DNA of 62,120 bases from Anaerolineae bacterium (GTDB lineage: Bacteria; Chloroflexota; Anaerolineae; UBA1429). Positions 3,110-28,830 of this stretch are shown here, piece by piece (the stretch's first letter is position 1; each line of letters begins with the position of its first letter). Location of the stretch: contig JAWLEV010000004.1 of the NCBI GenBank assembly GCA_041685915.1, positions 1-62,120 of the forward strand, read 5' to 3'. A model generated the notes under the pieces. The model ran no database searches, was not told where the DNA came from, and was given only the letters and a program-made list of their open reading frames with translations. The position numbers and the translations under genes were made by a program.

Positions 3110-3318
3110 AAAAATTCGACTCGTAAACGCGATATAGTGGATTGATCGTCAGATAGCATAGTGCAGACGTCGCTGTCCTCAAAATTTGTCCAGACGGTCG
3201 TGTGCATTTGTGGTTCGCACTGAGAGGCTTTGTCGGGTTCGGTGTCTGTGCATATAATGGGGGATGTGTCCTGGTGAATCTGGACAGTAGCACACGTGAT
3301 GTATGAAATGGGAGCAAA

Positions 3319-5397
3319 ATGAAAGAGATAGCAGTGAACGTGGAACGTTTTGCGCCGTTACATGGTTGGGTTAATCGTATCCTGCGCGTCGATCTCTCCG
3401 ACGGGTCCATAGAGGTGGAGCCGTCGGAGCCATATGTCCCCGATTATCTGGGTGGTCGTGGCCTGGCCGCGCGCATAGCCTGGGAAGACTATCCCGAGCC
3501 TGTGGATGCCCTGTCCCCCGAGAATCCCCTCATGGTCATGGCAGGGGCCCTCACAGGGACGGTGTCTCCCTATTCTGGCCGCGCGGCGATATGTGGTTTC
3601 AGTCCCCAGGCCTATCCGTACAACTGGTTCACGCGGGCCAATATCGGGGCCCAGTGGGGCGCCGAACTGAAAAGAGCCGGCTACGACGGCATCATCGTCA
3701 CCGGCGCCAGCGAGATGCCGGTGCAGATCGTAATTCGCGATGACGAGGTGCGTATCGCGCCGGCCGATCACCTGTGGGGCCTCGATACCTACGAGACGAT
3801 GGAGGCCCTTGAGGATGAGGTGGATCCCCGCGTCAAGCCCCTGATCATCGGCCCCGCAGGGGAGCGCCTCAGTCGCATCGCCACGATACATGCGGCCACC
3901 TCCTCGGCGGCGGGGCAGGGAGGCTTTGGTGCCGTCATGGGTTCAAAAAAACTGAAAGCCATCTCTGTGGTGGGTAGCGGACGCGTGTCGGTGGCCCATA
4001 AGGAAGAGTTTCGCGATTTCGTCGGTGCTGTGCGCGATGAACTGCGTCCCAATCGCCCGTTGCGCGACCTGGAATCCACGAATGAGAAGTTGCAGTCGGA
4101 TCGGGGTGGGCGCGTGCGTCACTATGCCTGCACGGCCTCCTGTCCCACGCCCTGCAATCGCTACTATACCAATATGCCTGGCGTGGCTCATCCGGAGCGC
4201 ACCTACGAGGGGCATATGGCCTGTGTGGGAGGGTGTTTCCCGGGGCAATCGGAGGATGGTCCTATATCCTACGGGGGGCTCTACGATTGGAAGTTAGGCC
4301 TCTATGGGGGGTTCGAGATGAACGTGCTCAGCAATCGCTATGGATTGAACCAGTGGGATCTCATCGTGAGTATGGTACCCTGGTTGGAGCGCTGCCAGAA
4401 CGCCAGTCTTATCGATGAGATGAACGGTATGCCCATGGATTGGCAGGATCCCGAGTTCTGGGCCGAATTTCTCCATGCTATCGCCTATCGCGAGGGGATG
4501 GGCGATGCTTTGGCCGAGGGCGGTCTGCGCGCCTCGGAGGAATTGGGCATGGGACAGGGCTTTGCGCGGCGCTACTATACCGGCTGGGGATACGGGGGCC
4601 ATTGGGATGCCCACGCCTGCTGGTTGAACTATCTCGTCTTTCCTTACTGGCTGGTGTCCACATTGCAGTGGTCCACGGACACGCGGGATCCCTATAGCAG
4701 CAGCCATGGCTATGTGCAGAATATCATGCGCTGGGCGCCCCTGGCCATTCGCCAGCGGCGCGACGTGGAGGTGACCTGGGATCACATTCGGGGCATCAGC
4801 GAGCGCGTCTATGGCAGTGCCGAGGCCCTGGATCCCGAGAGTGGTTATAAGGAAAAGGCCTATCCGGCCTACTATCACGACAAGCGCTCGGTGATGAAGG
4901 ATTGCGTACCCACCGACGATCAGGTCTTCCCTCTCATTTATAGCGTCACCACCGAGGATCGCTTTTTCCGCGTCGGCGATGTGGAAGGTCCCTCTGTGGA
5001 CTATCATCTGTTCCGTCTGGGAACGGGCACCGAGTGGAGCGAAGAGGAATTTGAGGGGGCAGCGGAGCGTGTCTACACCCTGGAGCGGGCTCTGTGCGTC
5101 CGCCACTGGGGACGCGACCGCGCCATGGACGACAGCGTCCTGTCCTCCTTTACCTATGAGGAGAATTGGGAGAACCCCGTTCTCGGCGAAAAACATGCCC
5201 TGGATCGCGAAAAGATAGCGCCGGTTCGGCAAGAGTACTATCGTCATCTGGGATGGGATCCGGACACTGGCCGTCCGACGCGCAAGCGTCTGTGCGATCT
5301 GGATCTGGAAGACATCTACGAGCCCATGGTGTCGGGGGCCGAGGACGCGGAGGAGAGGCGAGCCGAATGGCCGGAATGGCCGCCTCCTGAGGTGTAG
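3319..5397 (+). CDS. Aldehyde:ferredoxin oxidoreductase family (W/Mo-pterin) protein
   Basis: N-terminal ILRVDLS, YLGGRGLA, IGPAGE, GFGAVMGSKKLKAI; Cys cluster CTASCPTPC; C-terminal YY..LGWD..TGRPT. Confidence 0.9.
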   Translation: MKEIAVNVERFAPLHGWVNRILRVDLSDGSIEVEPSEPYVPDYLGGRGLAARIAWEDYPEPVDALSPENPLMVMAGALTGTVSPYSGRAAICGFSPQAYPYNWFTRANIGAQWGAELKRAGYDGIIVTGASEMPVQIVIRDDEVRIAPADHLWGLDTYETMEALEDEVDPRVKPLIIGPAGERLSRIATIHAATSSAAGQGGFGAVMGSKKLKAISVVGSGRVSVAHKEEFRDFVGAVRDELRPNRPLRDLESTNEKLQSDRGGRVRHYACTASCPTPCNRYYTNMPGVAHPERTYEGHMACVGGCFPGQSEDGPISYGGLYDWKLGLYGGFEMNVLSNRYGLNQWDLIVSMVPWLERCQNASLIDEMNGMPMDWQDPEFWAEFLHAIAYREGMGDALAEGGLRASEELGMGQGFARRYYTGWGYGGHWDAHACWLNYLVFPYWLVSTLQWSTDTRDPYSSSHGYVQNIMRWAPLAIRQRRDVEVTWDHIRGISERVYGSAEALDPESGYKEKAYPAYYHDKRSVMKDCVPTDDQVFPLIYSVTTEDRFFRVGDVEGPSVDYHLFRLGTGTEWSEEEFEGAAERVYTLERALCVRHWGRDRAMDDSVLSSFTYEENWENPVLGEKHALDREKIAPVRQEYYRHLGWDPDTGRPTRKRLCDLDLEDIYEPMVSGAEDAEERRAEWPEWPPPEV

Positions 5398-5453
5398 AAT
5401 ATGACACTGCGGAAGGCGTGACGATAAGATTTTCGTCGGACAGGGAGAGGGCT

Positions 5454-6476
5454 GTGATCGTTTTCAAAGATTTCAGGAGGGCCAGGGGGGGCTTGTGCTT
5501 GCTCCTGGCCCTTGTTCTGATCGCGACCTGTGCCTGTGCGGGACCTTTTGCCAGAAAAGGTCCGACGCCTACCACGACGCCGTCGGCAACGCCTCCCGCC
5601 ACCCCTACGCCCTCTTTTACCCCGACGGCGACATACACTCCCTCGCCTACTCCCACAGAGACACCCTCTCCCACGCCGTTGCCCTTGCAGGCGAAGGTGG
5701 ATCTGGAGCAGTCCGAGGTGATGCAGGGGCGTACCACCGTCGTGTGGGTGCGGACGAACCTTCCCAGTCACGTATGGGGAAGTGTCGATAGTCGTGCCCT
5801 TCAATTCGTCTCTGTGAGTGACCTGGAGCATTATTGCCTTGTGGGAATGCAGGCCCTGGATCAGTTGGGCGCCCATCCCTTGAAGGTGGTGGCCCAGGCG
5901 GGGGATGATCGGCAGGTGACCCTCCGGACGTCGCTGCGCGTGATGTCTGGGAACTATGAGCGCGAGACGATCCACTTCACACCAGAGGTGGCCGAATTAT
6001 TGGATCCCAAATACACCCGTCCCGAGCGATTGCGTCTGGCCGAGGTGTATGCGACATTCACGCCGCAGGCTCATTGGGAATCCCCTTTTGCCTGGCCCTG
6101 TGAGGGAGCCATCACATCCCATTTTGGCACCAGGCGGCAGTACGGGGGGGAGATACAGTCCTATCACGCCGGTATCGACATGCGCGGGGCGACTGGCGAT
6201 CCCTTTTGTGCACCCGCCCCGGGTGTGGTGGTCCTGGCCGAGGTGCTGAAGGTGCGTGGGGGAGCGGTGATCCTCGATCACGGCGCCGGTGTACTCAGTG
6301 GATTCTACCACCTTGATAGTGTTGATGTGGAGGTGGGCCAGTCTGTGGCGCAAGGGGATGTTCTGGGAGAGATTGGATCGACCGGATTATCCACGGGATC
6401 GCATCTGCATTGGGAACTACGCGTGGGGGGCGTGGCCGTGGATCCCGGCGAGTGGACGGAGCGCCAATTCCCGTGA
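5454..6476 (+). CDS. M23 family metallopeptidase with signal peptide and Thr/Pro linker
   Basis: ITSHFG, HAGID, TGSHLHWE motifs; start GTG 5454 chosen for RBS (5418 alternative). Confidence 0.85.
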   Translation: MIVFKDFRRARGGLCLLLALVLIATCACAGPFARKGPTPTTTPSATPPATPTPSFTPTATYTPSPTPTETPSPTPLPLQAKVDLEQSEVMQGRTTVVWVRTNLPSHVWGSVDSRALQFVSVSDLEHYCLVGMQALDQLGAHPLKVVAQAGDDRQVTLRTSLRVMSGNYERETIHFTPEVAELLDPKYTRPERLRLAEVYATFTPQAHWESPFAWPCEGAITSHFGTRRQYGGEIQSYHAGIDMRGATGDPFCAPAPGVVVLAEVLKVRGGAVILDHGAGVLSGFYHLDSVDVEVGQSVAQGDVLGEIGSTGLSTGSHLHWELRVGGVAVDPGEWTERQFP

Positions 6477-6506
6477 TGAGGTGCAGGAAGGAGGTATATC
6501 CTTGCG

Positions 6507-7253
6507 ATGAGCACGTTTTATGCTGAAAGGCCGTTGATCATTGCCCATCGTGGTGCCAGCGCCGTGGCGCCGGAGAATACCCTGGCAGCGTTTGAAGCGG
6601 CCGTGGAGGCGGGGGCCGATGGTGTGGAATTGGACGTGATGCGGTGTCGCAGCGGGGAGTTGGTGGTCGTGCACGATGATACGGTGGATCGCACGACGGA
6701 TGGGTCGGGATTGGTGCGCACCATCTCGAAGGATAGCCTGCGCATGCTGGACGCAGGCTCCTGGTTTGGCCTCGAGTACGCCGGACAGCGCATCCCCACA
6801 CTGGAGGAAGCGTTGGCTTTTGTGGAGAGGGGCATCAGGTTGAATATAGAGATCAAGAGCCAGATGCTCCGCAGCGAAGGGTTGGAGGAGGAGATCGCCG
6901 ATATGATTCGCGCCCAGAGGTGCGAGGATAGGGTACTCATTTCTTCTTTCAATCCTCTTGTTCTCATGCGCATGAAAGACGTTGCCCCAGAACTTCAACG
7001 TGGATTGCTGTACGCGCCGGGATCCCTTCGCTCTTCCCCTCGCATATGGCGACATTTTGTACAGCCTCAGGCCCTGCATCCCCATCACAATGTGGTAGAT
7101 GAGGAATACATACACTGGGCGAGAGACAATGGCTACCGCGTCAACGTATGGACGGTAAACGAGGCGGCAAGGATGCGCGAGATGACGGCCCTTGGCGTCG
7201 ACGGTATCATCACGGATCATCCGGCCCGGCTGCGGCGGCTCTTATATTCGTGA
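6507..7253 (+). CDS. Glycerophosphodiester phosphodiesterase
   Basis: IAHRGAS..APENT, ELDV, HD, WTVN, GIITD motifs. Confidence 0.93.
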   Translation: MSTFYAERPLIIAHRGASAVAPENTLAAFEAAVEAGADGVELDVMRCRSGELVVVHDDTVDRTTDGSGLVRTISKDSLRMLDAGSWFGLEYAGQRIPTLEEALAFVERGIRLNIEIKSQMLRSEGLEEEIADMIRAQRCEDRVLISSFNPLVLMRMKDVAPELQRGLLYAPGSLRSSPRIWRHFVQPQALHPHHNVVDEEYIHWARDNGYRVNVWTVNEAARMREMTALGVDGIITDHPARLRRLLYS

Positions 7254-7274
7254 AAGCGGTCGATACGTCCCCCT

Positions 7275-8576
7275 TTAGTGGAGGGGAAAGGCGCGACAGA
7301 GTTCCAGGGCCCGTTCGCCCACCCTTTGTAGAGTTTCCGGATCGTCCGCGTTGTGTATGATCTGGAGGATGAGGTCCGCCACTTCCTCCATCTCCTCCTC
7401 GCCAAAGCCACGGGTGGTCACGGCGGGCGTTCCCAGACGGATGCCGCTCGTCACCCGGGCGGGGAGGGGATCGAAGGGAATACGATTCTTGTTGCAGATG
7501 ACGTTGGCCTCTTCCAACAAGTTCTGGACTTTTCGTCCCGTCAGATCGTGGGGTGCTAGATCGACCAGCATGAGATGGTTGTCCGTGCCCCCGGATACCA
7601 AGCGGAGCCCCTCCTCAGCCAGTGCCTCGGCCAGCGTCTGGGCGTTGCGTACGATCTGGCGCTGATAGTGGTCGAATTCGGGTGCCAGGGCCTCGCCAAA
7701 GGCCACCGCCTTGGCCGCTATGACGTGCATCAGGGGACCGCCCTGGGTGCCCGGGAAGACGGCCCTGTCGATGGCCCTGGACAGGTTCTCTTTGCAGAGG
7801 ATCAGTCCCCCGCGGGGGCCGCGCAGGGTCTTGTGCGTCGTCGCTGTCACGATATCCGCAAACGGTATGGGGCTGGGATGAACGCCAGCCGCGATCAGGC
7901 CAGCGATGTGGGCCATGTCGACCATGAGATACGCGCCCACGTCGTCGGCGATCCTCCGCAGGCGAGCAAAGTCGATGGTGCGGGGATAGGCGCTGGCACC
8001 GGCCACGATCAGTTTGGGCCCAAAGTTTCGGGCTTGGGAGGCCAGATCATCATAATCGATGCATTCCGTGTCGCGCCGCACGCCATAGTGGGCGAAATCG
8101 TACAGTTGGCCGGAGAAGCTTAGTTTATGTCCGTGGGTTAGGTGGCCTCCGTGGGCCAGGCTCATGGCCAGGACCCGGTCACCGGGATCGAGGATGGCCA
8201 TATAGGCCGCCGCGTTGGCCTGGGAGCCCGAGTGGGGCTGAACGTTCACGTGATCGGCGTCGAATAGTTTTTTGGCCCGCTGGATGGCCAGGTTTTCTAC
8301 GACATCCACGTATTGACATCCGCCATAGTAGCGTTGTTCGGGATATCCTTCGGCATACTTGTTTGTGAACAGCGTTCCCTGAGCCGCGCGCACGGCCTGG
8401 CTGGCATAGTTCTCGGAGGCGATGAGGTTGATGGTCTCCTCTGCTCGCCCTCTTTCGCCTCCCAGCGCCTGGGCGACGGACGGGTCAACATCATGCAACA
8501 GTTCATATATCGCAGTATGGGGTTCACATGGATCGTCAGCCAGAACGTCCAAAGCCCCTTTCGTATAATCGGACAT
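7275..8576 (-). CDS. glyA: Serine hydroxymethyltransferase
   Basis: [42 protein letters not shown]; GGAGG RBS before ATG 8576. Confidence 0.97.
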
Positions 8577-8588
8577 TCTTACCTCCAC

Positions 8589-8626
8589 AAAAAAAAAGTG
8601 CCCTGGCCCATGCAGACCCAGGACAC
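8589..8626 (-). terminator. Intrinsic terminator/attenuator immediately upstream of glyA RBS
   Basis: Minus strand GTGTCCTGG...CCAGGGCAC stem followed by T9. Confidence 0.8.
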
Positions 8627-8769
8627 AATCGGATTCCTGCAAATGTGCTAGATCATAACTGTGCTGGGACTGCCTCCTCCTCGAGGTTTGCCTTCCGGGA
8701 AGTTGAGGGATCAGTCACTAACGGAAAGACACACATAAGAATATATACCGAGTATTCGTCGCAGACAAA

Positions 8770-9621
8770 TCATCGTTCTCTCTCGATCTTATGCGACGGT
8801 AAAGTGAATCGGCGGAGGCGGCGTTTCTGCCATGTCCAGAGCAGGCCAGCGACGAGCACGAGAAGCAGGCCCGAAAGGGCGGTCCATCCCGTGCGCAGCC
8901 ACTTCCATATCCTCCACACGGAGGGCTGGTCCGACCCCGCAGGAAAATGGTCCTTCGGCGGAGGGGGTACCATCGTGGCCGTGGGTTCGGGCGGCCTGGG
9001 TGGCGTTGCCGTGGGCGTTTCAGGCATGGCTGCAGCGGAAGCGCTTGGTGTCTCCGATGCTTTCGGTGCTGGTTCCCCCTCCAACATTTCGACCTCGGGT
9101 TCTAGCCCTTCTGGAGTGGCCTCTTCCGTTGCACGTTCCGCCGCCGCAGGGGCTTCTTTTTCCGTGACTTTTTCTTCCCAGGGCGAGGGGGATGGAGTGT
9201 GAACCTCCTCTTGAGGAACCTCGGCCATCTCCACCTGAATATCTTGCGGTGCTTTTGTGGTTCGACCAGGTAGGGAGATGAATCCCTGGCTGATCGCCAG
9301 GTCGCCTGAGAGGAACAATATCAACAGCAGGGATACCACAGCTGTGGCCGTTCCGAGCGCCGTGTGCATCCTGCTCCAGAAACGGTACCGCTCTCGCTCC
9401 TTCTCGACCGAGGCTGGCAGTTCAAAGGAACGGGGTAGCGGAATGGCGGGAACGGCGTGCAGTAGCTCTACGGTGCTGCGAAGCGTCTCGAGTTCCTCCT
9501 GACAACGGGAGCATTCGGCGAGATGGCGCTCCACGCGCTCTCTTTCCCTAATAGTCAGCTGCCCATCCAGGTAGGTGGATAGATTCTTTTGTGTGAACCT
9601 GTGATCGAGGCGAAAGCCCAT
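8770..9621 (-). CDS. Zinc-finger (zf-HC2) anti-sigma factor with two TM segments
   Basis: LSTYLDG..HLAECSRC (HxxxCxxC); downstream of ECF sigma. Confidence 0.85.
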   Translation of the reverse strand: MGFRLDHRFTQKNLSTYLDGQLTIRERERVERHLAECSRCQEELETLRSTVELLHAVPAIPLPRSFELPASVEKERERYRFWSRMHTALGTATAVVSLLLILFLSGDLAISQGFISLPGRTTKAPQDIQVEMAEVPQEEVHTPSPSPWEEKVTEKEAPAAAERATEEATPEGLEPEVEMLEGEPAPKASETPSASAAAMPETPTATPPRPPEPTATMVPPPPKDHFPAGSDQPSVWRIWKWLRTGWTALSGLLLVLVAGLLWTWQKRRLRRFTLPSHKIERER

Positions 9622-19792: not shown

Positions 19793-19819
19793 CCTCCGTC
19801 GTGCGTGTATCTGAGATCC

Positions 19820-20449
19820 ATGGTTGATATCTATCTCTTTCGTCATGCCCACGTCGACTATGATCCTCCGGCCCAGATAACGGCGCACAATCCGCTGACG
19901 GCGCTGGGCCACGAGATGGCCGAGCGCCTGGCTGAGCGGTGCGATGAGTGGCATCTGCAATATCTTTTCGTGAGCACCATGCCCAGGGCGCAGGAGACGG
20001 CGGACGCCATCTCTGGGCGCTTTCCCGGCCTGCCCCGCATGGAGATGCCCGAGTTCCGCGAGGTGTGTCTCGATCACCTGGTGGACTATCCTGGAGATCT
20101 GCCGGAGGCCGATCTGGCCTGCTGGGAGAGCGACCACTTTGCCCATGGCAACGAGCGTATGTGGAAGCGTGTGGAGGCGGGGTGGCGGCGGATGATGGAC
20201 GTGGTGGCCGACGAGGGGCTGCAGCGCGTCGCCGTCGTCTCCCACGCCGGACCCATAAACGTCATGCTGCGCCAGTTCCTGGGCGGGGGAATGGTTCGCC
20301 TGCGCACCTGCTGGTTCGAACTCGACTGGGCCTCCACCAGTTGCCTGCGCTCCACGTCGGAGGGTAAATGGGTGCGCTGGGTGAACGACGCGCGGCACAT
20401 CGATGCCCTGCGCCATCGTCTGTCCTCCGACGAGGATGACGCCTCGTAA
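19820..20449 (+). CDS. Histidine phosphatase (phosphoglycerate mutase family)
   Basis: LFRHA, STMPRAQET, VSHAG, NDARH. Confidence 0.88.
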   Translation: MVDIYLFRHAHVDYDPPAQITAHNPLTALGHEMAERLAERCDEWHLQYLFVSTMPRAQETADAISGRFPGLPRMEMPEFREVCLDHLVDYPGDLPEADLACWESDHFAHGNERMWKRVEAGWRRMMDVVADEGLQRVAVVSHAGPINVMLRQFLGGGMVRLRTCWFELDWASTSCLRSTSEGKWVRWVNDARHIDALRHRLSSDEDDAS

Positions 20450-20480
20450 TCCCATAATCCGTCTTGCATTTGCATTGCTA

Positions 20481-20511
20481 CAGGGAGGCGTCTCTCAGAG
20501 ACGCCTCCCTG
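20481..20511. terminator. Strong hairpin after histidine phosphatase
   Basis: CAGGGAGGCGTCTCT-C-AGAGACGCCTCCCTG perfect inverted repeat. Confidence 0.7.
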
Positions 20512-20572
20512 TCACTTTGGGAAGAGGCTGGGAGGGTGAAGGGGCGTCACAGAGAATAAGGAGGTTGGGTTA

Positions 20573-21304
20573 ATGCAATTATCAGGGGATCGCAACCGTA
20601 TTCTATTGGTGGATGACGAAAAGGCCATAACGGACAATCTGGCTTCCCTCCTGGAGCGCGCCGGATTCGCCGTGGCTGTGGCCGGCGATGGGGAGGAGGC
20701 AATGGAGCGGGCTGCCGCCTTTGCGCCGGACCTGATCGTCCTAGATGTGCTGATGCCCAAACTGAACGGGCGGGAAGTGCTGCGGCGGCTGCGTCAGGAG
20801 GGCGACTGGACCCCTGTGATCCTTCTTACCCAGGTGGGGGAATCCACCGAGCGGGCCATGGCCCTGGAGGAGGGGGCCGACGATTACCTCAACAAGCCCT
20901 TTGATCCCCACGAGTTGATCGCGCGCATCCGGGCCGTGCTGCGCCGCCGGGGCGCGGCTCCCGGGCAAAAGCCGTTGGCGGTGGCGAGCCGACTCCGCGC
21001 TCACGACGTGATCCTCGACCGCACGGCCCGGCAGGTTGAAAGGGGCGGCCGGCCTGTGGAACTCACTTCCAGGGCGGTGGCCCTGCTGGAGTATCTGATG
21101 CTTCATTCTCAGGAGGTGCTGGACCGGGAGCGGCTGCTGGATGCAGTCTGGGGTTGGGACTATGTCGTCGCCACCCGCGCCGTGGACGCTCGGGTGGCCG
21201 AACTGCGTCGCGCCCTCGATGACGATGCCGACGAGCCACGCTTTATCGAGACGGTGGTGGGACAGGGCTATCGCTTTGTGGCCCCTGTGGAGGCGACATC
21301 GTGA
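20573..21304 (+). CDS. OmpR/PhoB family response regulator
   Basis: LLVDDE, LDVLMP, GADDYLNKPF, C-terminal winged helix IETVVGQGY. Confidence 0.95.
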   Translation: MQLSGDRNRILLVDDEKAITDNLASLLERAGFAVAVAGDGEEAMERAAAFAPDLIVLDVLMPKLNGREVLRRLRQEGDWTPVILLTQVGESTERAMALEEGADDYLNKPFDPHELIARIRAVLRRRGAAPGQKPLAVASRLRAHDVILDRTARQVERGGRPVELTSRAVALLEYLMLHSQEVLDRERLLDAVWGWDYVVATRAVDARVAELRRALDDDADEPRFIETVVGQGYRFVAPVEATS

Positions 21305-22227
21305 ATGGCGGGCGATGGCGGAGGTGGTGGCCCTTGGCGGCGAGCCTGGCTCCGCTCATGCTGGGGTTGCTGGTGGCGTTGCTCTGGCAGTCCGGCCTCT
21401 TTCCCGATCCGCTGCTGACCTTTCGGCTGCGCGCCGACGTGGGGAGTCTGTTCCTGCTGCTCGGGGCGTTGCTCACATTGCTGGCCTTGCCGGCTGCAGC
21501 CGTCGCCGTGTACGCCAGGCACCGGCGCGCCCGCGACCTAGAGGCCGCCCGCGCCGCTTGGGCCGACGACCGCCAGCGCTTTTTACGTCGCCTCGACCAC
21601 GAGTTAAAGAACCCCCTCACCGCCCTCCGTGCGGGGCTGGCCAACCTGGTCTCCCTCGACGATGGCCCCGAACGGGACGCCGCCCAGGCCAGCGTGGAGA
21701 CGCAACTGATGCGCCTGAACCGCCTGGTCGGTGATCTGCGTAAACTCGTGGAACTGGAGCAGCGGCCCCTGGAGCGGGCGCCCGTGGACGTGGGCGCGCT
21801 GCTGACCGAGGTGGTCGAGCTGGCGAGGGAGACGCCCGACCGCCAGGTCTCCCTCGCCCTGCCTCAGGCCCCCTGGCCGCTGCCGCCCGCATCCGGCGAC
21901 CAGGATCTGATCTTTTTGGCCTGTTACAACCTGGTGGATAACGCCTGCAAGTTCACCTGTCCCGGCGACGCCATTGAGGTACGCGCCTTTGAGGATGATC
22001 GTTGGATCGTCGTCGAGGTGGCTGATACCGGCCCCGGCATCCCCGTGGAGGATCTCTCCCACATTTTTGAGGAGCTGTATCGCGGTGATGCCGCCCGCGC
22101 GGTGGAGGGCAGCGGGTTGGGACTGGCGCTGGTGCGCGCTGTGGCTCGTCACCACGGCGGCAGCGTGACCGTGCGCAGCCGCAAGGGCGAGGGCACCGCC
22201 TTTACCCTGCGCCTCCCGATGGCCTAG
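21301..22227 (+). CDS. Sensor histidine kinase, 2 TM with short loop
   Basis: HELKNPL, NLVDNA, DTGPGI, GSGLGL; 4-nt overlap with the regulator. Confidence 0.93.
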   Translation: MNGGRWRRWWPLAASLAPLMLGLLVALLWQSGLFPDPLLTFRLRADVGSLFLLLGALLTLLALPAAAVAVYARHRRARDLEAARAAWADDRQRFLRRLDHELKNPLTALRAGLANLVSLDDGPERDAAQASVETQLMRLNRLVGDLRKLVELEQRPLERAPVDVGALLTEVVELARETPDRQVSLALPQAPWPLPPASGDQDLIFLACYNLVDNACKFTCPGDAIEVRAFEDDRWIVVEVADTGPGIPVEDLSHIFEELYRGDAARAVEGSGLGLALVRAVARHHGGSVTVRSRKGEGTAFTLRLPMA

Positions 22228-22267
22228 GGGCGGCGCACGCTGTCTTATACTTTTGCTGTTTCTCCGA

Positions 22268-22294
22268 TGCAGTATTTTCCTCCCTCGCGCGTTT
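22268..22294 (+). promoter_or_regulatory. Candidate ECF-type (autoregulatory) promoter
   Basis: TGCAGT-N16-CGTTT upstream of the ECF gene, resembling the TGAAAC-N16-CGT layout. Confidence 0.4.
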
Positions 22295-22337
22295 TAATAA
22301 GTGAGTTGGATGAATCCTCAATAGGAGTGCAGATCGG

Positions 22338-22919
22338 ATGGACCCCAAGCAGGAGCGAGCGCTACTGAGACGCGCCCGGAACGATCCCCAGGCCTTGCGA
22401 GCGCTGTACGATCACTACTTTCCTAAGGTGTATGCCTATACGAGTTACCGCGTAGGGCGGGTGCAGGATGCGGAGGATATCGTTGCCGACGTATTTCTGA
22501 CAGCGGTCGATAAACTGGATATGTTTCGGTGGCGCGGAGAGGGCTCCTTTGCCGCCTGGCTCTTTCGTATCGCTCGCAACCGGGTGAGCGACTTTTACCG
22601 GCGCGGGCGGGGCTCTGAGGAGGGGGTCGCCCTGGAGGATCTGCCCTGTCTGGCGTCCAGTGCCCTACTTCCGGCCGATGCCATCGCGCGGAAGGAGAGG
22701 TTCGCCCACCTGCGGCGCCTGATTGACACGCTGTCGCCTCGACGCCGTGAGGTGATCCTTCTCAGGTTCTTTGGGGGCCTGCGGAACAAGGAAATCGCCG
22801 CCCTGCTGGAGTTGGACGAGCGTACCGTGGCCTCGCACCTGTGTCGGGGATTGAGAGATCTGCACCGCCAATATGTGGATGAGGAAAAGAGGGAGGTGCC
22901 CCATGAGCAAGGAGTATGA
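22338..22919 (+). CDS. ECF sigma factor
   Basis: DAEDIVADVF, FAAWLFRIARN, NKEIAALL, TVASHLCRG. Confidence 0.92.
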   Translation: MDPKQERALLRRARNDPQALRALYDHYFPKVYAYTSYRVGRVQDAEDIVADVFLTAVDKLDMFRWRGEGSFAAWLFRIARNRVSDFYRRGRGSEEGVALEDLPCLASSALLPADAIARKERFAHLRRLIDTLSPRRREVILLRFFGGLRNKEIAALLELDERTVASHLCRGLRDLHRQYVDEEKREVPHEQGV

Positions 22920-24171
22920 GTTGACGGAGCAGGATCGCATGTTGTTGGAGGAAATTGAGGAGAGCCTCGCCGATGGCGAGGGACGCGAGGAGGGGGCGCT
23001 GCATGGCCTTGGCGTTCGACTGGCCAGCACTGTGCCCCGGGCCGACGACGCTTTCCGAGAGCGGTTGGCGTCTCGGTTAGTTGCCAGAATGCAACAACGG
23101 ACGGCTCATGAGGCCGACGAGGAGGTTACTGGGAGACGCGGGGCGCGGCGATGGTTCCCCCTTGGCCGCTTGCTTGCACAGATTCCCAGCCCCGCCACCG
23201 GTCTGGGATGGGCCGTTACAGCCTTGATCCTTTGCCTGTTTTTTGGGACGGTGACCTATGCCGTGGTGCCCGCTGTAAGCCGCTTGTTCCAATTGGAGGA
23301 CGGTTTGCAGCACGTCGAGCAGGCCGATTTGGTGCAGGAACTTGATCTGAGCCAGACGATGCACGGTGTCACTGTCACCCTGGAACGGGCCTACGCTGAT
23401 GCTAACCGTATCGTCGTGGACTATACCGTAAAACATCCCGACGACCAGCGGTATGAGGCGAGTCGCCTGACACTCACCGATGCGGACGGCAACGTCTTTC
23501 CCAGGACGGTGGGATGGGGCGCGTCTGGTCGATCCGATCTCTTCGGAATCGAACTCCCAGAGGGAGAAGGAAACTATGTGAATTCCTTCGATGCCGCCAG
23601 TGTAAAGGGAGCGCCAGCGGAATTGGATTTGCGGCTGGCGATGGAGTTGAGGGAGTTTGTTCTGCCCACTGACACGCCAGGTACCTCTGTCGGTTCATCG
23701 AGTGCCCCGGCGGAGCCCGCGGAGCCCATGGTGGTGGAACTGGAGCCCATGCCCCAGGGGGACGTCGTTGGGACCTTTGCCTTTGACTTTAGCGTGCCCT
23801 TTATTCCCGGACGTGTGGTCGAGGTGGACCAGACTGTGGAAACTGCCGGGGTTGCTATGCGCCTGGAGCGGGTGGTGGTAACTCCTTCGGAGGCGAGGGC
23901 CTACTTGCGTTTCGATCCACCGACCGAAGTGGAGACGAGCTGGACGTCCATCGTGACGCTCAGAGCACCTGACGATAGGAAGACACGAGGCGACTTCTAT
24001 GCCGTCGCCGACGATTCACCTGTCCACGTATATGGTTTCCCGGCACCGCTCCACGAGCGGCAAGGCGAGTGGACGCTGAAGGTGACCGAACTGGTGGGGA
24101 CCGAGTTGGTGCCTCCATACGAACAGGTGCGGCTGGCTGGGCCGTGGGAGTTTCGCTTCCGCGTGCCGTAG
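22903..24171 (+). CDS. Membrane-anchored anti-sigma factor with DUF4179-like extracytoplasmic domains
   Basis: Overlaps the sigma gene; single TM; SQTMHGVTVTLERAYADANRI and GPWEFRF pattern; GGAGG RBS. Confidence 0.7.
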   Translation: MSKEYELTEQDRMLLEEIEESLADGEGREEGALHGLGVRLASTVPRADDAFRERLASRLVARMQQRTAHEADEEVTGRRGARRWFPLGRLLAQIPSPATGLGWAVTALILCLFFGTVTYAVVPAVSRLFQLEDGLQHVEQADLVQELDLSQTMHGVTVTLERAYADANRIVVDYTVKHPDDQRYEASRLTLTDADGNVFPRTVGWGASGRSDLFGIELPEGEGNYVNSFDAASVKGAPAELDLRLAMELREFVLPTDTPGTSVGSSSAPAEPAEPMVVELEPMPQGDVVGTFAFDFSVPFIPGRVVEVDQTVETAGVAMRLERVVVTPSEARAYLRFDPPTEVETSWTSIVTLRAPDDRKTRGDFYAVADDSPVHVYGFPAPLHERQGEWTLKVTELVGTELVPPYEQVRLAGPWEFRFRVP

Positions 24172-24220
24172 CAGGTTAGAGGCGTTGGTGTTCGCGTATG
24201 CCGAACCCGGGACGGCTAGC

Positions 24221-24309
24221 TCTCAGCGACCTATGTAACGAGATTGTAACACTGTGTGACGAGGTGGTTACCATCCCATCATACGGTGTTACGGGGTATG
24301 TGGTACACT
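24221..24309 (+). repeat. 89-bp direct repeat copy 1 (promoter element)
   Basis: 81/89 identical to 25283-25371; ends in TGGTACACT extended -10. Confidence 0.92.
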
Positions 24310-24337
24310 ATGACTGCCGGAACACGGGAGGGGAAGG

Positions 24338-25165
24338 ATGACAGCTCATAAAGTGACGCGAACGTTCCTGGAAGAAGCTGCCCGGGCGATGGCGATCCTT
24401 GCCATCCTGTTCTTTGGCGGCGTCGCGCCCCTGGTATCTCTGTTCGGTCTGCGGTTTTGGCCCACACTCCTCGGCGTGATGGGTGTAGCCCTAGTGGTGT
24501 TTGTCGTGATGATCGCGATGCGTCTCAGAACCGGTCGCGGGGTCAAGCTGCGATGGCATCGCTTAGGCCTGTTCGTCGTTGGGACGTTGGGCCTGAGTCT
24601 GCTGTCCCTGTGGCTGTCCGGGCCCACGGCGGGAGGCGCCCTGCGGGCTAGCCTCGTGGAGCGCATCCGCGGCGAGACGCCTGAGGCCCGAATCGAGGCC
24701 TACGTGGACGCAGTCCTGCGCGGTGATGAGGCCGCCGCGCTGGCGGCATGGAAGGTGCCGGCCGAGGACGGCGCCGACGAACAAAGCAATCTCCTCCGCC
24801 AACGGCGGCAGGAGGTGACGCGCACGCTCATCGCCGCCGACCTCGATAGCGAGTATATGATCACGCGCACCGAGTGGTGGCGCACCTGCTGCGAGCCTGG
24901 CGTGACGTGTGACCCGCGCAGCGCCGGGGGCGCGCGGGTGCGCGTCCAGTTCCTGGATCAGGATGGCTTGCCGGTCACCTACGTCTTTGACGTCTTCCAT
25001 CAGGATGGCGCCTACTGGGGGGCTGCGGCGGGCTATCCACCAAGACGGTGGGCGCTCCGCGACGTCTACCCTCGGGGCGAGGAGCCCCTCTACTGGCGAT
25101 GGGTCTATACACCTAGGGTGGAACACCTGGGCTGGCCGCCCGGCGCTGCGGCAGCGGTGCCGTGA
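24338..25165 (+). CDS. Hypothetical membrane protein (3 TM plus soluble domain with WWRTCCEPGVTC motif)
   Basis: ORF with RBS, hydrophobic N-terminus, preceded by repeat copy 1. Confidence 0.7.
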   Translation: MTAHKVTRTFLEEAARAMAILAILFFGGVAPLVSLFGLRFWPTLLGVMGVALVVFVVMIAMRLRTGRGVKLRWHRLGLFVVGTLGLSLLSLWLSGPTAGGALRASLVERIRGETPEARIEAYVDAVLRGDEAAALAAWKVPAEDGADEQSNLLRQRRQEVTRTLIAADLDSEYMITRTEWWRTCCEPGVTCDPRSAGGARVRVQFLDQDGLPVTYVFDVFHQDGAYWGAAAGYPPRRWALRDVYPRGEEPLYWRWVYTPRVEHLGWPPGAAAAVP

Positions 25166-25282
25166 GGACGGTGGGCAATCTGGCCGACTACAATCGCCGT
25201 GTAGGAGGGCCTTCCCCCTGGCAGCCTACCTCTTGGCGGACGATAAGGCGGCCGATAGAGTTGTACAGCAGGCAGGGTTGGT

Positions 25283-25371
25283 TCTCACCGACCTATGTAA
25301 CGAGACTGTAACACCGTGTGACGAGGTGGTTACCATCCCATCATACGGTGTTACACGTTATGTGATATACT
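25283..25371 (+). repeat. 89-bp direct repeat copy 2 (promoter element)
   Basis: 81/89 identical to 24221-24309; ends in TGATATACT extended -10. Confidence 0.92.
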
Positions 25372-25422
25372 GGCTATCGAAAAAGGGAGGGATTGAAGGG
25401 TTCCAGTTGAGGAGATTCTGGC

Positions 25423-27495
25423 ATGAAGCGACGGTCATTAGGGGAGTGGTTAACGGGTCTGGGGCTGTTGGTGGCGTTTTTGTCTCTAGCGGCCGCCTGT
25501 GGGGACACGCTCGACCTGGCGGTGGAGACCGCGCCGGCGGCCGAGGCGACCATCACCGCATTAGAACGGGAGAAATCTCAACTGGCCACCAAGGTGGCCC
25601 ACCACGAGTCCCGCCTGGGACGGTTGGCCTACGTTCAGGGGGGCGACATTTGGGTCAAGGGGTTGCCCGATGGGGAGCCGCAGCGCCTGACCACGGACGG
25701 GCACAACAGCGAGCCACGGTGGTCGCCCTCGGGCCAGTGGTTGGCCTTCCGCCGGGGAGATTTCAATCGCGTCTGGATCATGCGGGAGGATGGTGTGGCT
25801 GCCCGTCAGGCAAACCAGGGGCGTCCCGTGGATGCCTTTGCCTGGTCGCCGGTGGAAGACCATCTGGCCTACGTCGATGCGTCTAATGGTGCATTGTGCG
25901 TGCAGGACGCGGATGCAGAGCAGTCAGAGGCGCTGGTGCGCGAGGTTGGGGAGGATTCGCCGACGCCCCCGGAGAGGGAACGCGGCGTCACGGAGATCGC
26001 CTGGAGCATGGACGGCACCCGCATCGCGTACACCCTGTTCGAGCATCCACAGCAGGCGGGGGAAAACGCCGGTCCACCAAGTTATCAGGGGTTGTGGGTC
26101 GTCCCGGCAGGGGGCGGCGAGCCGGAAGAGATCTATGACAGTGGGGTGCCGGAGCGGGGGATGGTTCATCTTTATGGTTGGACGGTGGATGGCGGTCACG
26201 TCCTGTTCTGGCAGGGAGAAACGCTCTCGGCCTCGATGCTGGCCGATGGCATTCCCCTCCATGCCCTGCCCGCGGACGGGGGCGGGGCGACACAGTTGAC
26301 CGATGCCGTCCTCTTACACCAGGACTTTGTGGCGCCGTTCCCCGCTGGCTTTCGCGTCGCCGTCGTCGCAGGCGCCGGGCGGATGACCTGGACCAACAAA
26401 CGCATCGCGGTCGTGGAGCCTGAGAGCGGGGAGGTCACTTACCTCACCTCCGAGGATGTGGTGGCCCTCTCCCCCGTGTGGTCTCCGGATGGCACCCATC
26501 TGGTCTACTCAGCCATGCCTGAGGAGGAAGATCTGGTGGGCGGGGAGGTGGCTCGGGAGGCGATGATGGGCCGCAGGCTCTGGATGATCGATGCGGACGG
26601 CAGGGAGGCTGAGAAACTGACCGACGATTCCGATTACCGCGACGAGCGTCCCCTGTGGTCGGCCGACGGCTCGCACCTCCTCTTCGCCCGCTTTGACGCC
26701 GAGGATCGCGCCTCCCTGTGGCTCGTGCCACTGGAGGCTGGCGAGCCGCAGCAGGTGGTGGAGGAACTGACCCCGGCGCCAGAGTGGTTCGGCAATTACG
26801 GTCACATCGCCTGGCATCAATGCTTTGATTGGTGGCGCGGCGAGGCCCGTCCCATGACGGCAGCAACGGCGACACCTGGGCAAACGCCAACTCGGACGCC
26901 AGCCGAGACGCCGCGGGCGAAATACGCCCCTCCATCGCTGATGGAGACCCCTCTACCCTATGCTATCTCCCTACAGGCCTACGACGGTCCGGGCTTCTCG
27001 TTTCAGTATCCGGCCCATGCCCAGGTGGAAGCGGTCGATCCGGAGGTGCCTGCGGCGACCGAGATACGCGTCAATGGCCCCGTCGTGTGTATCAAACTAG
27101 GTGATGCGGACTGGTCATACAATGGTGAAGCCTACCAGCTGACCGTACGCACGTTTGAGAATCCAGAGGGGCTGGACGCGGAGTCGTGGGCACGGGATTA
27201 CGTCCTCGTGCGTTGGCAGGAGGCCAGAGAGCGAGACCGACCCACGGGGTCGTTGCCGGTGACGGAGGAGGGGGCGATTCAAGAGGATAAAGTGGGACAC
27301 CACATCGTGGCTGGTCAGCCTGCATTTTGGGTCAGGTACTTTTGGTTTGATTCTACCTATTGGGCGTTCTATCTGACCGTCGAGGACCGCATTGTGGAGC
27401 TGAGCTTCCTCAACTACCCGCTGGCCAACCAGCCATTAGCCGTGGTACAACAGGATATCTATGCGTTGATCATAGATACCTTTCAGCTTGATTGA
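25423..27495 (+). CDS. TolB-like (PD40/WD40 propeller) lipoprotein with C-terminal PsbP-like domain
   Basis: LAAAC lipobox; PRWSPSG, AWSP, AWSMDG, VWSPDG, LWSADG repeats; Thr/Pro linker; GFSFQYP. Confidence 0.8.
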   Translation: MKRRSLGEWLTGLGLLVAFLSLAAACGDTLDLAVETAPAAEATITALEREKSQLATKVAHHESRLGRLAYVQGGDIWVKGLPDGEPQRLTTDGHNSEPRWSPSGQWLAFRRGDFNRVWIMREDGVAARQANQGRPVDAFAWSPVEDHLAYVDASNGALCVQDADAEQSEALVREVGEDSPTPPERERGVTEIAWSMDGTRIAYTLFEHPQQAGENAGPPSYQGLWVVPAGGGEPEEIYDSGVPERGMVHLYGWTVDGGHVLFWQGETLSASMLADGIPLHALPADGGGATQLTDAVLLHQDFVAPFPAGFRVAVVAGAGRMTWTNKRIAVVEPESGEVTYLTSEDVVALSPVWSPDGTHLVYSAMPEEEDLVGGEVAREAMMGRRLWMIDADGREAEKLTDDSDYRDERPLWSADGSHLLFARFDAEDRASLWLVPLEAGEPQQVVEELTPAPEWFGNYGHIAWHQCFDWWRGEARPMTAATATPGQTPTRTPAETPRAKYAPPSLMETPLPYAISLQAYDGPGFSFQYPAHAQVEAVDPEVPAATEIRVNGPVVCIKLGDADWSYNGEAYQLTVRTFENPEGLDAESWARDYVLVRWQEARERDRPTGSLPVTEEGAIQEDKVGHHIVAGQPAFWVRYFWFDSTYWAFYLTVEDRIVELSFLNYPLANQPLAVVQQDIYALIIDTFQLD

Positions 27496-27507: not shown

Positions 27508-28830
27508 CTAGATATTGCCCTGCACCATGCCCTTGATGCGCTTGGGCAGCTTGCCGCGGACGTGAATGCCGTCCTGGCCATAGTCTTCCCGCTCGATGAT
27601 GCCCTGCTTGTGCCACAGATCCAGCAGGTTGCTCACCTTATAAGGGATGACGAGGTCCACGTCCTCCATCTCCTCCAGCAGCATTTCCTCCAGGCTGATC
27701 AGCAGATCCTCGATCCCCACCCCCTGCTCTGCCGAGATGGGAATCACGTGTCTATACTGCCTTCGGAGTTCCCCCACAGGACTGTTCTGCATGGCGAAGG
27801 GGTGTTCCTCCTCGTTCAGCATCACTTCTGGATCGATGAGGTCGATCTTGTTCAGGGCGATGATCGTGGGCTTGCCGCCAGCGTCTATTTCCTGCAGAAC
27901 CTCGTTCGCGGCAGTTACCTTTTGGAGCAGGTTCCGATCCTGAACGTCGACGACGTGGACGAGGATATCCGCCTCGTGCACCTCTTCCAGGGTGGCATGG
28001 AAGGCGGCCACCAGTTGCGTGGGAAGTTTTTGGATAAAGCCCACCGTGTCGGTAAAGAGGATTTCCTTGCCACTGGGCAGCGCCACTTTACGTGTGGTGG
28101 GATCCAGGGTGGCAAAGAGCTTGTCCTCCACGAGTACGTCGGCGTCCGCCAGGCGATTCAACAGTGTGGACTTGCCGGCGTTGGTATAGCCCACGATGGC
28201 CGCCACCGGCAGACCACGTAACCTGCGGCGATTCCTTCGCAGATCACGTTGCTTGCGCACCTCTTCGAGTTCTCGCTTCAGTCGCGTCATGCGCCGTCTG
28301 ATGTCGCGTTGGTCTGACTCTAGCTGGGTCTCGCCGGGTCCTCGGAGTCCCACACCGCCCACGGCCTGCCTGGAGAGGTGGGTCCATCGCCGTGTGAGGC
28401 GCGGCAGCCGATAGACGTACTGGGCCAGTTCGACCTGCAGGGAGCCCTCCTTGGTGTTGGCGCGCATGGCAAAGATATCGAGGATGAGGGCCGTCCGGTC
28501 CAGCACGTTGGTATCAAGGATCTCCTCCAGGTTGCGCAATTGTGCCGCCGACAACTCGTTGTCAAAGATGACCACGTCGAACCCCAACGCTTTCTTGAGG
28601 TCCCTTATCTCCTCGGCCTTGCCTGTGCCGATATAGGTGGCGGGATTGATGCTGTGCAGGTTCTGGGACGCGCGGCCCACCACCTTCAGTCCTGCTGTGT
28701 AGGCAAGTTGCTCCAACTCATCCAGGGATTCTTCCAGAGTGAATAGGGATTGCTCGCCCCTGACCTGGGCGCCGACGAGAAAGGCACTCTCGGGACGCTC
28801 CAGGAGACCCGTGTCATGTTCCCCGGCAAT
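27508..28830 (-). CDS. hflX: GTPase HflX (start uncertain, probably non-canonical ATT)
   Basis: LDIFAMRA, GPGETQLE, GYTNAGKS, LFATLD, DTVGFI, NKID; conserved ESAFLVG N-terminus lies upstream of the TTG in the ORF track. Confidence 0.93.
   Translation of the reverse strand: MAGEHDTGLLERPESAFLVGAQVRGEQSLFTLEESLDELEQLAYTAGLKVVGRASQNLHSINPATYIGTGKAEEIRDLKKALGFDVVIFDNELSAAQLRNLEEILDTNVLDRTALILDIFAMRANTKEGSLQVELAQYVYRLPRLTRRWTHLSRQAVGGVGLRGPGETQLESDQRDIRRRMTRLKRELEEVRKQRDLRRNRRRLRGLPVAAIVGYTNAGKSTLLNRLADADVLVEDKLFATLDPTTRKVALPSGKEILFTDTVGFIQKLPTQLVAAFHATLEEVHEADILVHVVDVQDRNLLQKVTAANEVLQEIDAGGKPTIIALNKIDLIDPEVMLNEEEHPFAMQNSPVGELRRQYRHVIPISAEQGVGIEDLLISLEEMLLEEMEDVDLVIPYKVSNLLDLWHKQGIIEREDYGQDGIHVRGKLPKRIKGMVQGNI

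Follow-up and report, generated by a model that had tools for sequence, protein, structure and literature searches.

A mosaic gene cluster in an Anaerolineae genome holds a recurrent regulator, loop-only kinase, and propeller lipoprotein with a duplicated candidate control element

Within the window analysed here, a 62,120-nucleotide stretch of contig JAWLEV010000004.1 from an Anaerolineae bacterium (genome G000 of our comparative sample), six co-oriented genes occupy positions 20573-27495 and end at the convergent hflX gene. They encode a two-component system (TCS), composed of a response regulator (RR) and a histidine kinase (HK), an extracytoplasmic function (ECF) sigma factor with its anti-sigma protein, a membrane protein (g5), and a propeller-bearing lipoprotein (g6), and a candidate control element is repeated in front of each of the last two genes. 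These genes and the features that accompany them are as follows, with positions given in the window:

20480-20512, + strand: palindrome, 16-nt arms (20480-20495 and 20497-20512) that are 100% complementary, kept in genus relatives
20573-21304, + strand: regulator, 243 aa, OmpR/PhoB family (Pfam Response_reg, 1.1e-31; Trans_reg_C, 1.1e-25)
21301-22227, + strand: histidine kinase, 308 aa (Pfam HisKA and HATPase_c)
22227-22246, + strand: weak terminator-like hairpin and then a T-rich tail, directly 3' of the kinase stop codon
22273-22298, + strand: candidate ECF-type autoregulatory promoter, TATTTTCC-N9-CGTTTTAAT
22338-22919, + strand: ECF sigma factor, 193 aa (Pfam Sigma70_r2, r4_2, and Sigma70_ECF)
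22873-24171, + strand: anti-sigma protein, single-pass, with DUF4179 and a possibly DUF5643-like extracytoplasmic domain; likely start 22903
24209-24309, + strand: candidate control element, copy 1; hexamer starts at 24234, 24245, 24255, 24266, 24277 (degenerate), and 24287
24301-24309, + strand: extended -10 of copy 1, TGGTACACT
24338-25165, + strand: g5, 275-aa membrane protein, three N-terminal helices and a putatively NTF2-like extracytoplasmic domain
25271-25371, + strand: candidate control element, copy 2; hexamer starts at 25296, 25307, 25317, 25328, 25339 (degenerate), and 25349
25363-25371, + strand: extended -10 of copy 2, TGATATACT
25423-27495, + strand: g6, 690-aa lipoprotein, PD40 propeller and PsbP/Mog1-fold domain
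27508-28716, - strand: hflX (Pfam), convergent, right edge; synteny in genus and family

The open reading frame (ORF) calls place all six co-oriented genes where the initial annotation had put them, and Pfam agrees on their kinds, with g5 alone lacking a family. The upstream hairpin that it had noted is likewise real, being a palindrome with perfect 16-nt arms in the gap that separates the histidine-phosphatase (19805-20449) and regulator genes, where it is likely the terminator of the former and marks the left edge of the cluster. At the right edge, the convergent hflX is also as described, and begins 12 nt past the end of g6 on the opposite strand. As for internal terminators, a consensus scan of the window gave three sites against 4.8 expected by chance, and so the hairpin after the kinase gene is to be regarded as weak. 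Moreover, the remark that parts of the cluster are GC-rich proved right, though the pattern is a patchy one. Relative to a genomic value of 0.5835, the regulator (0.654), kinase (0.689), and g5 (0.669) genes stand at the 97th-99.7th percentile of the long ORFs of this genome and g6 (0.636) at the 90th, whereas the ECF (0.615, 72nd percentile) and anti-sigma (0.610, 66th percentile) genes are ordinary.

For comparison, we used a sample of 401 Anaerolineae genomes, to which the class-wide counts below refer. Orthologues of the g6 propeller occur in 42 of these (E <= 1e-40), and the 30 best propeller loci were taken with 1.5-kb flanks, from which the window itself and the sister species G001 were set aside to leave 28. 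Here, we observed that regulator and/or kinase orthologues lie directly upstream of the propeller gene and on the same strand in 16 of the 28 loci, with identities of 60-73% (regulator) and 48-64% (kinase), and regulator orthologues adjoin propeller genes in other families of the class as well. The remaining loci include one with a regulator fragment only, one with a regulator downstream, and ten with neither gene within the flank. Because no ECF, anti-sigma, or g5 gene is found between kinase and propeller in any of the 28 loci, the conserved unit is one of regulator, kinase, and propeller lipoprotein. In three loci, the kinase stop codon is <=16 nt from the first possible start codon of the propeller ORF; the lipoprotein-type start, if used, would be up to ~50 nt downstream. 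In fact, all six genes are found together in none of the 400 other genomes, and the self-contained six-gene system proposed at first gives way in the synteny search to the recurring regulator-kinase-propeller arrangement. As a separate observation, one locus (L129, G311:C28) has two tandem propeller paralogues (4910-6493 and 7629-8924; 52% and 55% identical to g6) after a single regulator-kinase-element unit.

The regulator belongs to the OmpR/PhoB family, with Response_reg (109.7 bits) and Trans_reg_C (89.9 bits) both above their Pfam cut-offs. Its best NCBIfam matches are PhoB, RpaB, OmpR, MtrA, YycF, and CseB, every one of which falls under the equivalog cut-off (PhoB, 195.9 vs 296.2 bits; OmpR, 186.4 vs 331; YycF, 183.5 vs 340; CseB, 167.5 vs 350). 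The kinase begins with two hydrophobic segments separated by a loop of ~18 residues, as read from the alignment, after which come the dimerization and histidine phosphotransfer (DHp) and catalytic domains. Pfam recognizes HisKA and HATPase_c alone, with no HAMP, PAS, or other sensor domain. The same plan is found in 18 of 18 aligned orthologues, these showing two hydrophobic helices, a 15-18-residue loop of the form NP(I/V)L..LRADxGT, and then the DHp domain directly. With two helices, a loop of less than ~25 residues, and no sensor domain (Pfam and alignment), the kinase has the makings of an intramembrane-sensing one, and the short two-helix kinase almost without an extracellular sensor that had been seen in the sequence is thus of the loop-only type. 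Since it has no sensor domain, the kinase would monitor the membrane or envelope either by its own membrane part or with the help of a partner protein.

The third member of the unit, g6, is made up of a PD40 propeller (residues ~60-480), a Thr/Pro-rich linker, and a domain with the PsbP/Mog1 fold (~511-690), and its lipobox Cys26 is invariant in 16 of 16 aligned propeller orthologues. While it shares PD40 repeats with TolB, to which it had been likened, its score against the TolB equivalog TIGR02800 (69.2 vs 343.15 bits) leaves that likeness at the level of the repeats. The guess of a PsbP-like part fared better, as Foldseek matches the AlphaFold2 (AF2) model of the C-terminal domain (predicted local distance difference test score, pLDDT, 83.5) to PsbP/CyanoP at E-values of 2.4e-5 to 1e-4 and template modelling (TM) scores of 0.41-0.61. 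This domain is without a Pfam match at the sequence level, and its homologues occur as stand-alone lipoproteins with up to 78% identity. One such homologue elsewhere (L031, G041:C6:74000-92000; 5778-9405) is 288 aa long and 62% identical to the g6 C-terminus, and is transcribed divergently from a cluster of an ECF gene (43% identical to that of the window), a DUF5667 protein, and a lone winged-helix ORF. A complex prediction with two copies of kinase residues 1-105 and g6 residues 27-482 scored 0.00, which we counted neither for nor against binding.

No Pfam family was found for g5. Its AF2 model (pLDDT 83.6) has NTF2-like proteins (SnoaL/KSI) as all of its top Foldseek matches, albeit weak ones (best E 4.7e-3 with probability 0.99, and none at E <= 0.001), and the Atlas structure matches are also NTF2-like (TM 0.31-0.38). 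The family alignment conserves W-W-x-T-C-C-E-P, which agrees with the earlier description of a membrane protein with a Cys motif. There are 165 homologues at E <= 1e-5, a Pfam domain is found in none of the 120 listed, and the sources, where named, are Anaerolineae or Chloroflexota. Homologues occur in 28 of the 401 genomes, and their neighbours elsewhere are mostly unrelated housekeeping genes. A link to the regulator-kinase-propeller core exists only in G219, where the order is g5-RR-HK-element-propeller, and in G208, where a g5-like domain is part of a 979-aa ORF 3.5 kb downstream of the propeller. A candidate three-gene ECF-antisigma-g5 module, suggested by the two ORFs ahead of the g5 homologue in G041, was rejected, as Pfam identifies these as a flavin reductase and an unknown protein.

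Turning to the repeated element, its two copies span 101 nt at 87% identity, and they contain an 89-nt stretch that is 91% identical (E 6.7e-30 in a DNA search), which corresponds to the 89-bp upstream element first noticed in front of g5 and g6. DNA and profile searches of the 2.8-Mb assembly (92% complete) found no copy beyond these two, for in its own genome the profile finds the window copies at E ~1e-14 and the next match at E 0.15. An alignment of 13 copies from 12 genomes is ungapped, save for one base missing at the 5' end of one copy, and its invariant columns include T71, G72, T74, A75, and T79, which make up an extended -10 of the form TGnTAnnnT. Upstream of this are six TGTNAC hexamers at spacings of 11, 10, 11, 11, and 10-11 nt, with the last ending 7-8 nt ahead of the TG of the -10. 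The first two hexamers of each window copy form TGTAAC-N5-TGTAAC (24234-24250 and 25296-25312), an exact sequence match to the WalR-type box consensus. As the elements have no -35 box, a scan for sigma-70 consensus promoters found none there.

A related element lies between kinase and propeller in 10 of the 16 TCS-linked propeller loci. Beyond its training set, a 12-copy profile also matches upstream of the propeller in G388 (8.8e-18) and G100 (1.1e-12), in G002 (4.9e-15), and in G252, where the match follows immediately on the kinase gene (3.9e-9). In G388 and G100, the element accompanies a propeller gene with no adjacent TCS, and the RR-HK pair is on another contig (regulator 71-73% identical). 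In G092 and G357, a propeller homologue is present but the element is not, and neither genome yields a regulator match at E <= 1e-60. Though the sample is small, this points to a trans-acting link between the regulator family and the element. Copy 2 occupies the ancestral position in front of the g6 propeller gene, and copy 1 is the duplicate before g5. As judged by its sequence, the element looks like the conserved control region of the propeller gene and a candidate array for an OmpR/PhoB/WalR-type regulator. Given the element common to g5 and g6 and its OmpR-family array grammar, co-regulation of the two genes by the adjacent regulator, as the initial annotation had it, is the best reading.

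Three further occurrences of such sequences are worth recording. A four-hexamer array, TGTAAC-N5-TGCTAC-N5-TGTAAC-N5-TGAAAC, followed by 7 nt and then TGGTATCAT, is on another contig of the same genome (C57:510-579; L150), upstream of a gene for a 120-aa stand-alone receiver domain (618-980); it is the weak profile match at E 0.15, and could represent either a third target or a site for a paralogous regulator. In G252 (L154, C18:12000-18900; 2323-3788), three small ORFs stand between the element and the propeller gene, these encoding a 137-aa Cys-rich protein, a 197-aa protein with an N-terminus like a twin-arginine signal, and a 105-aa protein, so the controlled operon can hold other secreted proteins. 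Lastly, in G318 (L054, C93), the kinase-propeller gap is ~25 nt without an element, and a partial element (2880-2947, E 2.9e-8) is downstream of the propeller and upstream of a gene that appears LacI-type by its N-terminal sequence.

The other pair in the cluster is of a different kind. The ECF sigma factor scores above the cut-off of the NCBIfam sigma70-ECF superfamily (96.5 vs 42.9), comprises sigma-70 regions 2 and 4 only (Pfam), and is below the cut-off of the BldN-family model (131.4 vs 206.45; NCBIfam). Its partner matches DUF4179 at residues 114-187 (Pfam, 45.3 bits vs a cut-off of 30.1), and hence the DUF4179-like anti-sigma of the initial annotation stands; DUF5643 is below its cut-off (26.5 vs 34 bits). 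Atlas structure models align to DUF4179/DUF5643 proteins at TM 0.63-0.72, and a phmmer search with the anti-sigma against PDB sequences returned nothing meaningful. Most likely, the pair forms a separate proteolytic switch of the RsiV-like type. Both G002 and G065, the latter with the closest ECF orthologue, keep the sequence of 22273-22298 ahead of their ECF genes, and from these three sequences we propose it, with low confidence, as an autoregulatory ECF promoter. Motif scans did not find an ECF-type promoter upstream of g5, g6, or the regulator gene, and the element profile had no match upstream of the ECF gene in its own genome.

Homologues of the anti-sigma are found in 43 of the 401 genomes, and ECF genes precede its orthologues elsewhere. 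Among the genomes examined, a link between the ECF/anti-sigma pair and RR/HK is limited to three, namely its own, the sister species G002, and G341, the last with the order ECF-antisigma-RR-HK, four ORFs, and then a PD40 paralogue. Moreover, the sigma paired with the closest anti-sigma orthologue shares only 29% identity with the window sigma, so the sensor domain of the anti-sigma and the sigma have been reshuffled. These closest orthologues (L127, G370:C5; L121, G219:C45; L130, G243:C97) belong to a recurring layout of five-gene scale, with an ECF gene (40-42% identical to that of the window), a ~950-aa protein with a weak DUF5818 match (Pfam, checked in G370 only), a second ECF gene, and the DUF4179 anti-sigma. 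The ECF/anti-sigma pair of the window looks like a reshuffled version of this layout. An origin of the anti-sigma N-terminus from the 955-aa protein after the related ECF gene in G370 was considered and rejected, as there is no similarity.

Within the genus, the flanks are syntenic in all four species, with purH, esterase, and histidine-phosphatase genes on the left and hflX, aminotransferase, and peptidase genes on the right, and yet between them the four species have four layouts (E, control element):

G000 (window): RR-HK-ECF-antisigma-E-g5-E-g6
G002: RR-HK-ECF-antisigma-E, the first 29 codons of g6, and hflX; no g5
G001: RR-HK at the end of one contig; 3' part of E with g6-hflX at the end of another
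G003: decayed locus

The ECF, anti-sigma, and g5 genes were not found in G001, an assembly that is 95% complete. At the decayed locus (L022, G003:C6:1-1530), a g6 homologue with in-frame stops ends at ~residue 447; after it comes a copy of the final 87 histidine-phosphatase codons with the hairpin region, and at another contig end (L144, G003:C11) ~45 regulator codons are left. This decay may be rearrangement or misassembly. In other genera of the family, purH (G022, L146) or the esterase gene (G023, L148) directly faces hflX. It follows that the whole region is an insertion in the genus, and that the histidine-phosphatase gene and the cluster occupy a variable spot between conserved convergent genes. 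The closest relatives of the regulator, kinase, and propeller are in other families of the class (52-73% identity), and within the own family these three are restricted to genus members (1 of 15 sampled family genomes). Taken alone, the regulator shows 62-73% identity between families, against only 59-64% for hflX inside the family. From the patchy GC content and the differing layouts in G000, G001, G002, G219, and G341, the locus is a mosaic.

Taken together, we consider it on balance probable that this mosaic has grown around a conserved module of regulator, loop-only kinase, and propeller, that the predicted regulator array was duplicated before g5, and that the ECF pair is separate and was acquired on its own. 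In such a module, the kinase would sense the membrane or envelope by way of its membrane part or a partner protein and, as is known for its family, would phosphorylate the regulator. Judging from the sequence grammar and its comparative conservation, the regulator would then bind the six-hexamer array, probably as up to three head-to-tail dimers, with the array standing in for the -35 box ahead of the extended -10. From this promoter it would drive g6, and from the second promoter/operator copy, in this genome, g5. The products of both genes are predicted to act in the envelope and, more speculatively, may feed back on the kinase in the manner of SaeP/SaeQ, CseA, or LiaF. The ECF/anti-sigma genes would be a second, independent pair of RsiV-like architecture that, in this genus, came to lie between kinase gene and target promoter, where it may add read-through transcription into g5.

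Several points weigh against this interpretation. By a hand count, propeller and anti-sigma co-occur in 15 genomes against ~4.5 expected and propeller and g5 in 9 against ~2.9, with all three in 4 genomes, where the expectations assume independence and related genomes are not independent; this hints at a loose association, and a functional tie to the ECF pair is possible. Six of the 16 propeller loci with a linked TCS lack a profile match (E <= 1) in the interval from kinase to propeller, though visual inspection of one (L050) shows two TGTNAC hexamers and a TGnTA box. As TGTNACA is nearly palindromic, site orientation, as direct or inverted repeats, is ambiguous, and as the last hexamer falls within the would-be -35/spacer region, repression instead of activation is possible. 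The similar array on contig C57 means that the grammar may be common to other regulators, and the link between regulator and element is drawn from co-location and this grammar. Finally, RNA-library contigs from four metatranscriptome runs of three studies, labelled salt lake metagenome, match parts of each of the six genes (95-100% identity), a hint of expression; with DNA carry-over uncontrolled, such contigs show presence only, and cannot give starts, ends, strand, or level, and we drew no conclusion from uncovered stretches or from contig ends near the elements. One of these (X3, 24064-24298) passes from the anti-sigma stop codon into element 1 and two (X1, 25134-25345; X2, 25107-25354) from the g5 stop codon into element 2. 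Should these contigs be RNA, transcription from upstream also reaches the elements, which fits either read-through, and hence a dual input, or a role as RNA.

A first alternative is that the six genes form one integrated, block-acquired envelope-stress system with dual input, in which the TCS and ECF pair converge on g5 and g6. Consistent with this, all six are co-oriented with short gaps, no convincing terminator separates the anti-sigma gene from g5, and an RNA-library contig bridges the anti-sigma 3' end and element 1. Moreover, the sister species G002 retains RR-HK-ECF-antisigma, G341 has the two pairs adjacent in the other order, G048 and G054 each have an anti-sigma homologue within a few kb of a PD40 paralogue, and the whole region is inserted relative to family relatives. 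Nonetheless, we hold this alternative to be improbable. The ECF, anti-sigma, and g5 genes are never found between kinase and propeller in the 28 loci, none of 29 g5 loci has an ECF or anti-sigma match within 1.5 kb, and among 29 anti-sigma loci examined, only that of G341 has RR-HK orthologues. In addition, the GC content of the ECF pair is ordinary against the 97th-99.7th percentile of the regulator, kinase, and g5 genes, the layout differs in each of the four genus species, and the candidate ECF promoter motif is missing upstream of g5, g6, and the regulator gene. What is left of the dual input envisaged in the initial annotation is possible read-through from the anti-sigma gene into g5, but no ECF-type motif is common to g5 and g6. 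Acquisition as a block, also envisaged there, agrees with the insertion relative to family relatives, but sits poorly with the heterogeneous GC, the four genus layouts, and the lack of any other genome with the six genes together.

A more far-reaching reading, to which we give a similarly low probability, is that the g6 propeller, and here also g5, supplies the missing sensor parts of the loop-only kinase, with the ECF pair wired in and g5 under both inputs. If true, this would be a new accessory class for intramembrane-sensing kinases outside Bacillota, in which a propeller binds a cell-wall or envelope ligand, and the duplicated promoter would be a recent and still polymorphic step of regulon growth.

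Very unlikely, in our view, is that the element acts not as a DNA operator but as a cis-acting RNA, whether leader hairpin, attenuator, or 3'-end stem-loop. Both window copies do fold to a long hairpin of 15-16 outer pairs and an inner stem (minimum free energies of -37.5 and -44.9 kcal/mol), the sole stem substitution (C/T) retains pairing as G-U, and RNA-library contigs pass from the upstream genes into the element. However, the fold z-scores are only -1.7 and -2.3, and over the 13 copies the hairpin pairs in 58.6% of cells, compared with 53.3% after shuffling and 36-52% when the partners are slid, with the outer stem pairing in only 3-7 of the 13. A possible covariation of the central bases in the first and last TGTNACA sites, which would be a sign of a hairpin, was likewise discarded, as the stem is not kept in these copies. 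An Rfam search at E <= 1 gave two chance-level matches, none of them on the element. Furthermore, the invariant columns are the TGnTAnnnT, which is downstream of the hairpin, and the phased hexamers, and the contig ends (24298 and 25345/25354) coincide with the end of the stretch identical in both copies, and are explained by assembly breaks at a repeat. As the long hairpin is not conserved, an RNA element is unlikely, and as TGTNACA is near its own reverse complement, the array yields inverted repeats by itself; we thus read the hairpin as a by-product of the array in the genus.

Least credible is that the element is an ECF promoter for the neighbouring sigma, with TGTAAC/TGAAAC as its -35 and a CGT-containing box as its -10, for although the window has an ECF gene nearby and three related copies of one family (G311, G219, and G267) have TGAAAC and then a CGT/CAT box at about the usual ECF spacing, a pattern resembling that of SigW-type promoters, this is missing from the window copies and the other family subgroup, 10 of 12 element-bearing propeller loci outside the genus have an adjacent RR-HK and none shows an ECF gene within its 1.5-kb flank, the box of invariant positions is an extended -10 of the housekeeping type, and the region upstream of the ECF gene looks unlike the element.

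The regulator-kinase-propeller module has several counterparts among known systems. Kinases of the BceS and LiaS types in Bacillota have two helices and a loop of <25 residues, and presumably receive their signal via a partner protein. The window kinase resembles these in its two helices, short loop, and lack of an extracytoplasmic domain, but no BceAB-type ABC transporter or LiaF homologue is among the genes at 20573-27495, there is no HAMP domain, and the conserved neighbour is instead a PD40 lipoprotein. As for the element, pho boxes replace the -35 box, and such an array ends ~10 bp before the -10 hexamer, as is the case in the window element. A further parallel is the WalR/VicR box, with the consensus TGTWAH-N5-TGTWAH in the excerpts used of PMC4168254, which is also a direct repeat of hexamers in an 11-bp phase and is matched by the first two window hexamers, though the box described there has two hexamers against six phased ones here, and the regulator is not a WalR/PhoB equivalog. 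The concept of the intramembrane-sensing kinase itself is cited in the consulted parts of PMC5083920 and PMC7826278.

Closest in logic are SaePQRS, CseABC, and Lia-type feedback. SaePQRS of Staphylococcus aureus, as portrayed in sections of PMC5083920, pairs a kinase whose extracytoplasmic linker is short with a regulator of the OmpR family that has direct-repeat sites in the promoter of genes for a lipoprotein and a polytopic membrane protein. So far as these sections go, the likeness lies in the short-loop kinase, the OmpR-type regulator, the lipoprotein and membrane-protein targets, and a possible feedback on the kinase. The differences are that g5 and g6 have no sequence relation to SaeP/SaeQ (Pfam, NCBIfam), that g6 is a 690-aa propeller and PsbP-fold protein against a 146-aa lipoprotein, that the auxiliary genes are here downstream of the TCS and each with its own promoter copy, that there are six hexamers against two binding sites, and that the phylum differs. 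The sigE-cseA-cseB-cseC cluster of Streptomyces coelicolor similarly unites the genes of an ECF sigma, a lipoprotein, a regulator of the OmpR type, and a membrane kinase in one co-oriented envelope-stress cluster, and in the extracts used of PMC6767563 the lipoprotein is suspected to modulate the kinase, the sigma has no anti-sigma, and sigE transcription is wholly TCS-dependent. By that account, the window differs in having an anti-sigma, no regulator-type array upstream of the ECF gene, and a regulator that falls short of the CseB equivalog. Lastly, the single-pass anti-sigma, with DUF4179 directly after the helix and then what may be a DUF5643-like domain, resembles those of the SigV-RsiV and BAS1627 ECF30 pairs as outlined in parts of PMC6066255 and PMC7826278, where the DUF4179 region after the membrane helix of RsiV holds the signal-peptidase site that starts regulated proteolysis, and where DUF4179 (RsiV, BAS1627-type ECF30 partners) is described as almost confined to Firmicutes. 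It differs from RsiV in that Pfam finds no lysozyme-binding domains in it.

The kinds of parts and their logic are thus already known, and the locus is a patchwork and not one new system. Our searches of open-access full text for Chloroflexi intramembrane-sensing kinases or Anaerolineae envelope-stress TCSs turned up no description of the module family, its six-hexamer control region, or the promoter duplication. As such, the locus serves as a warning that a tidy co-oriented cluster need not be one system, and with 43 of 401 genomes encoding a homologue, it extends the range of DUF4179 anti-sigmas, near-exclusive to Firmicutes according to the excerpts cited above, to many Anaerolineae. Foremost, it defines a widespread and unstudied signalling module of the Anaerolineae, comprising regulator, loop-only kinase, and propeller lipoprotein with a conserved candidate operator, and it offers a case of regulon growth by duplication of a whole promoter/operator, of which sister species keep the before and after states.

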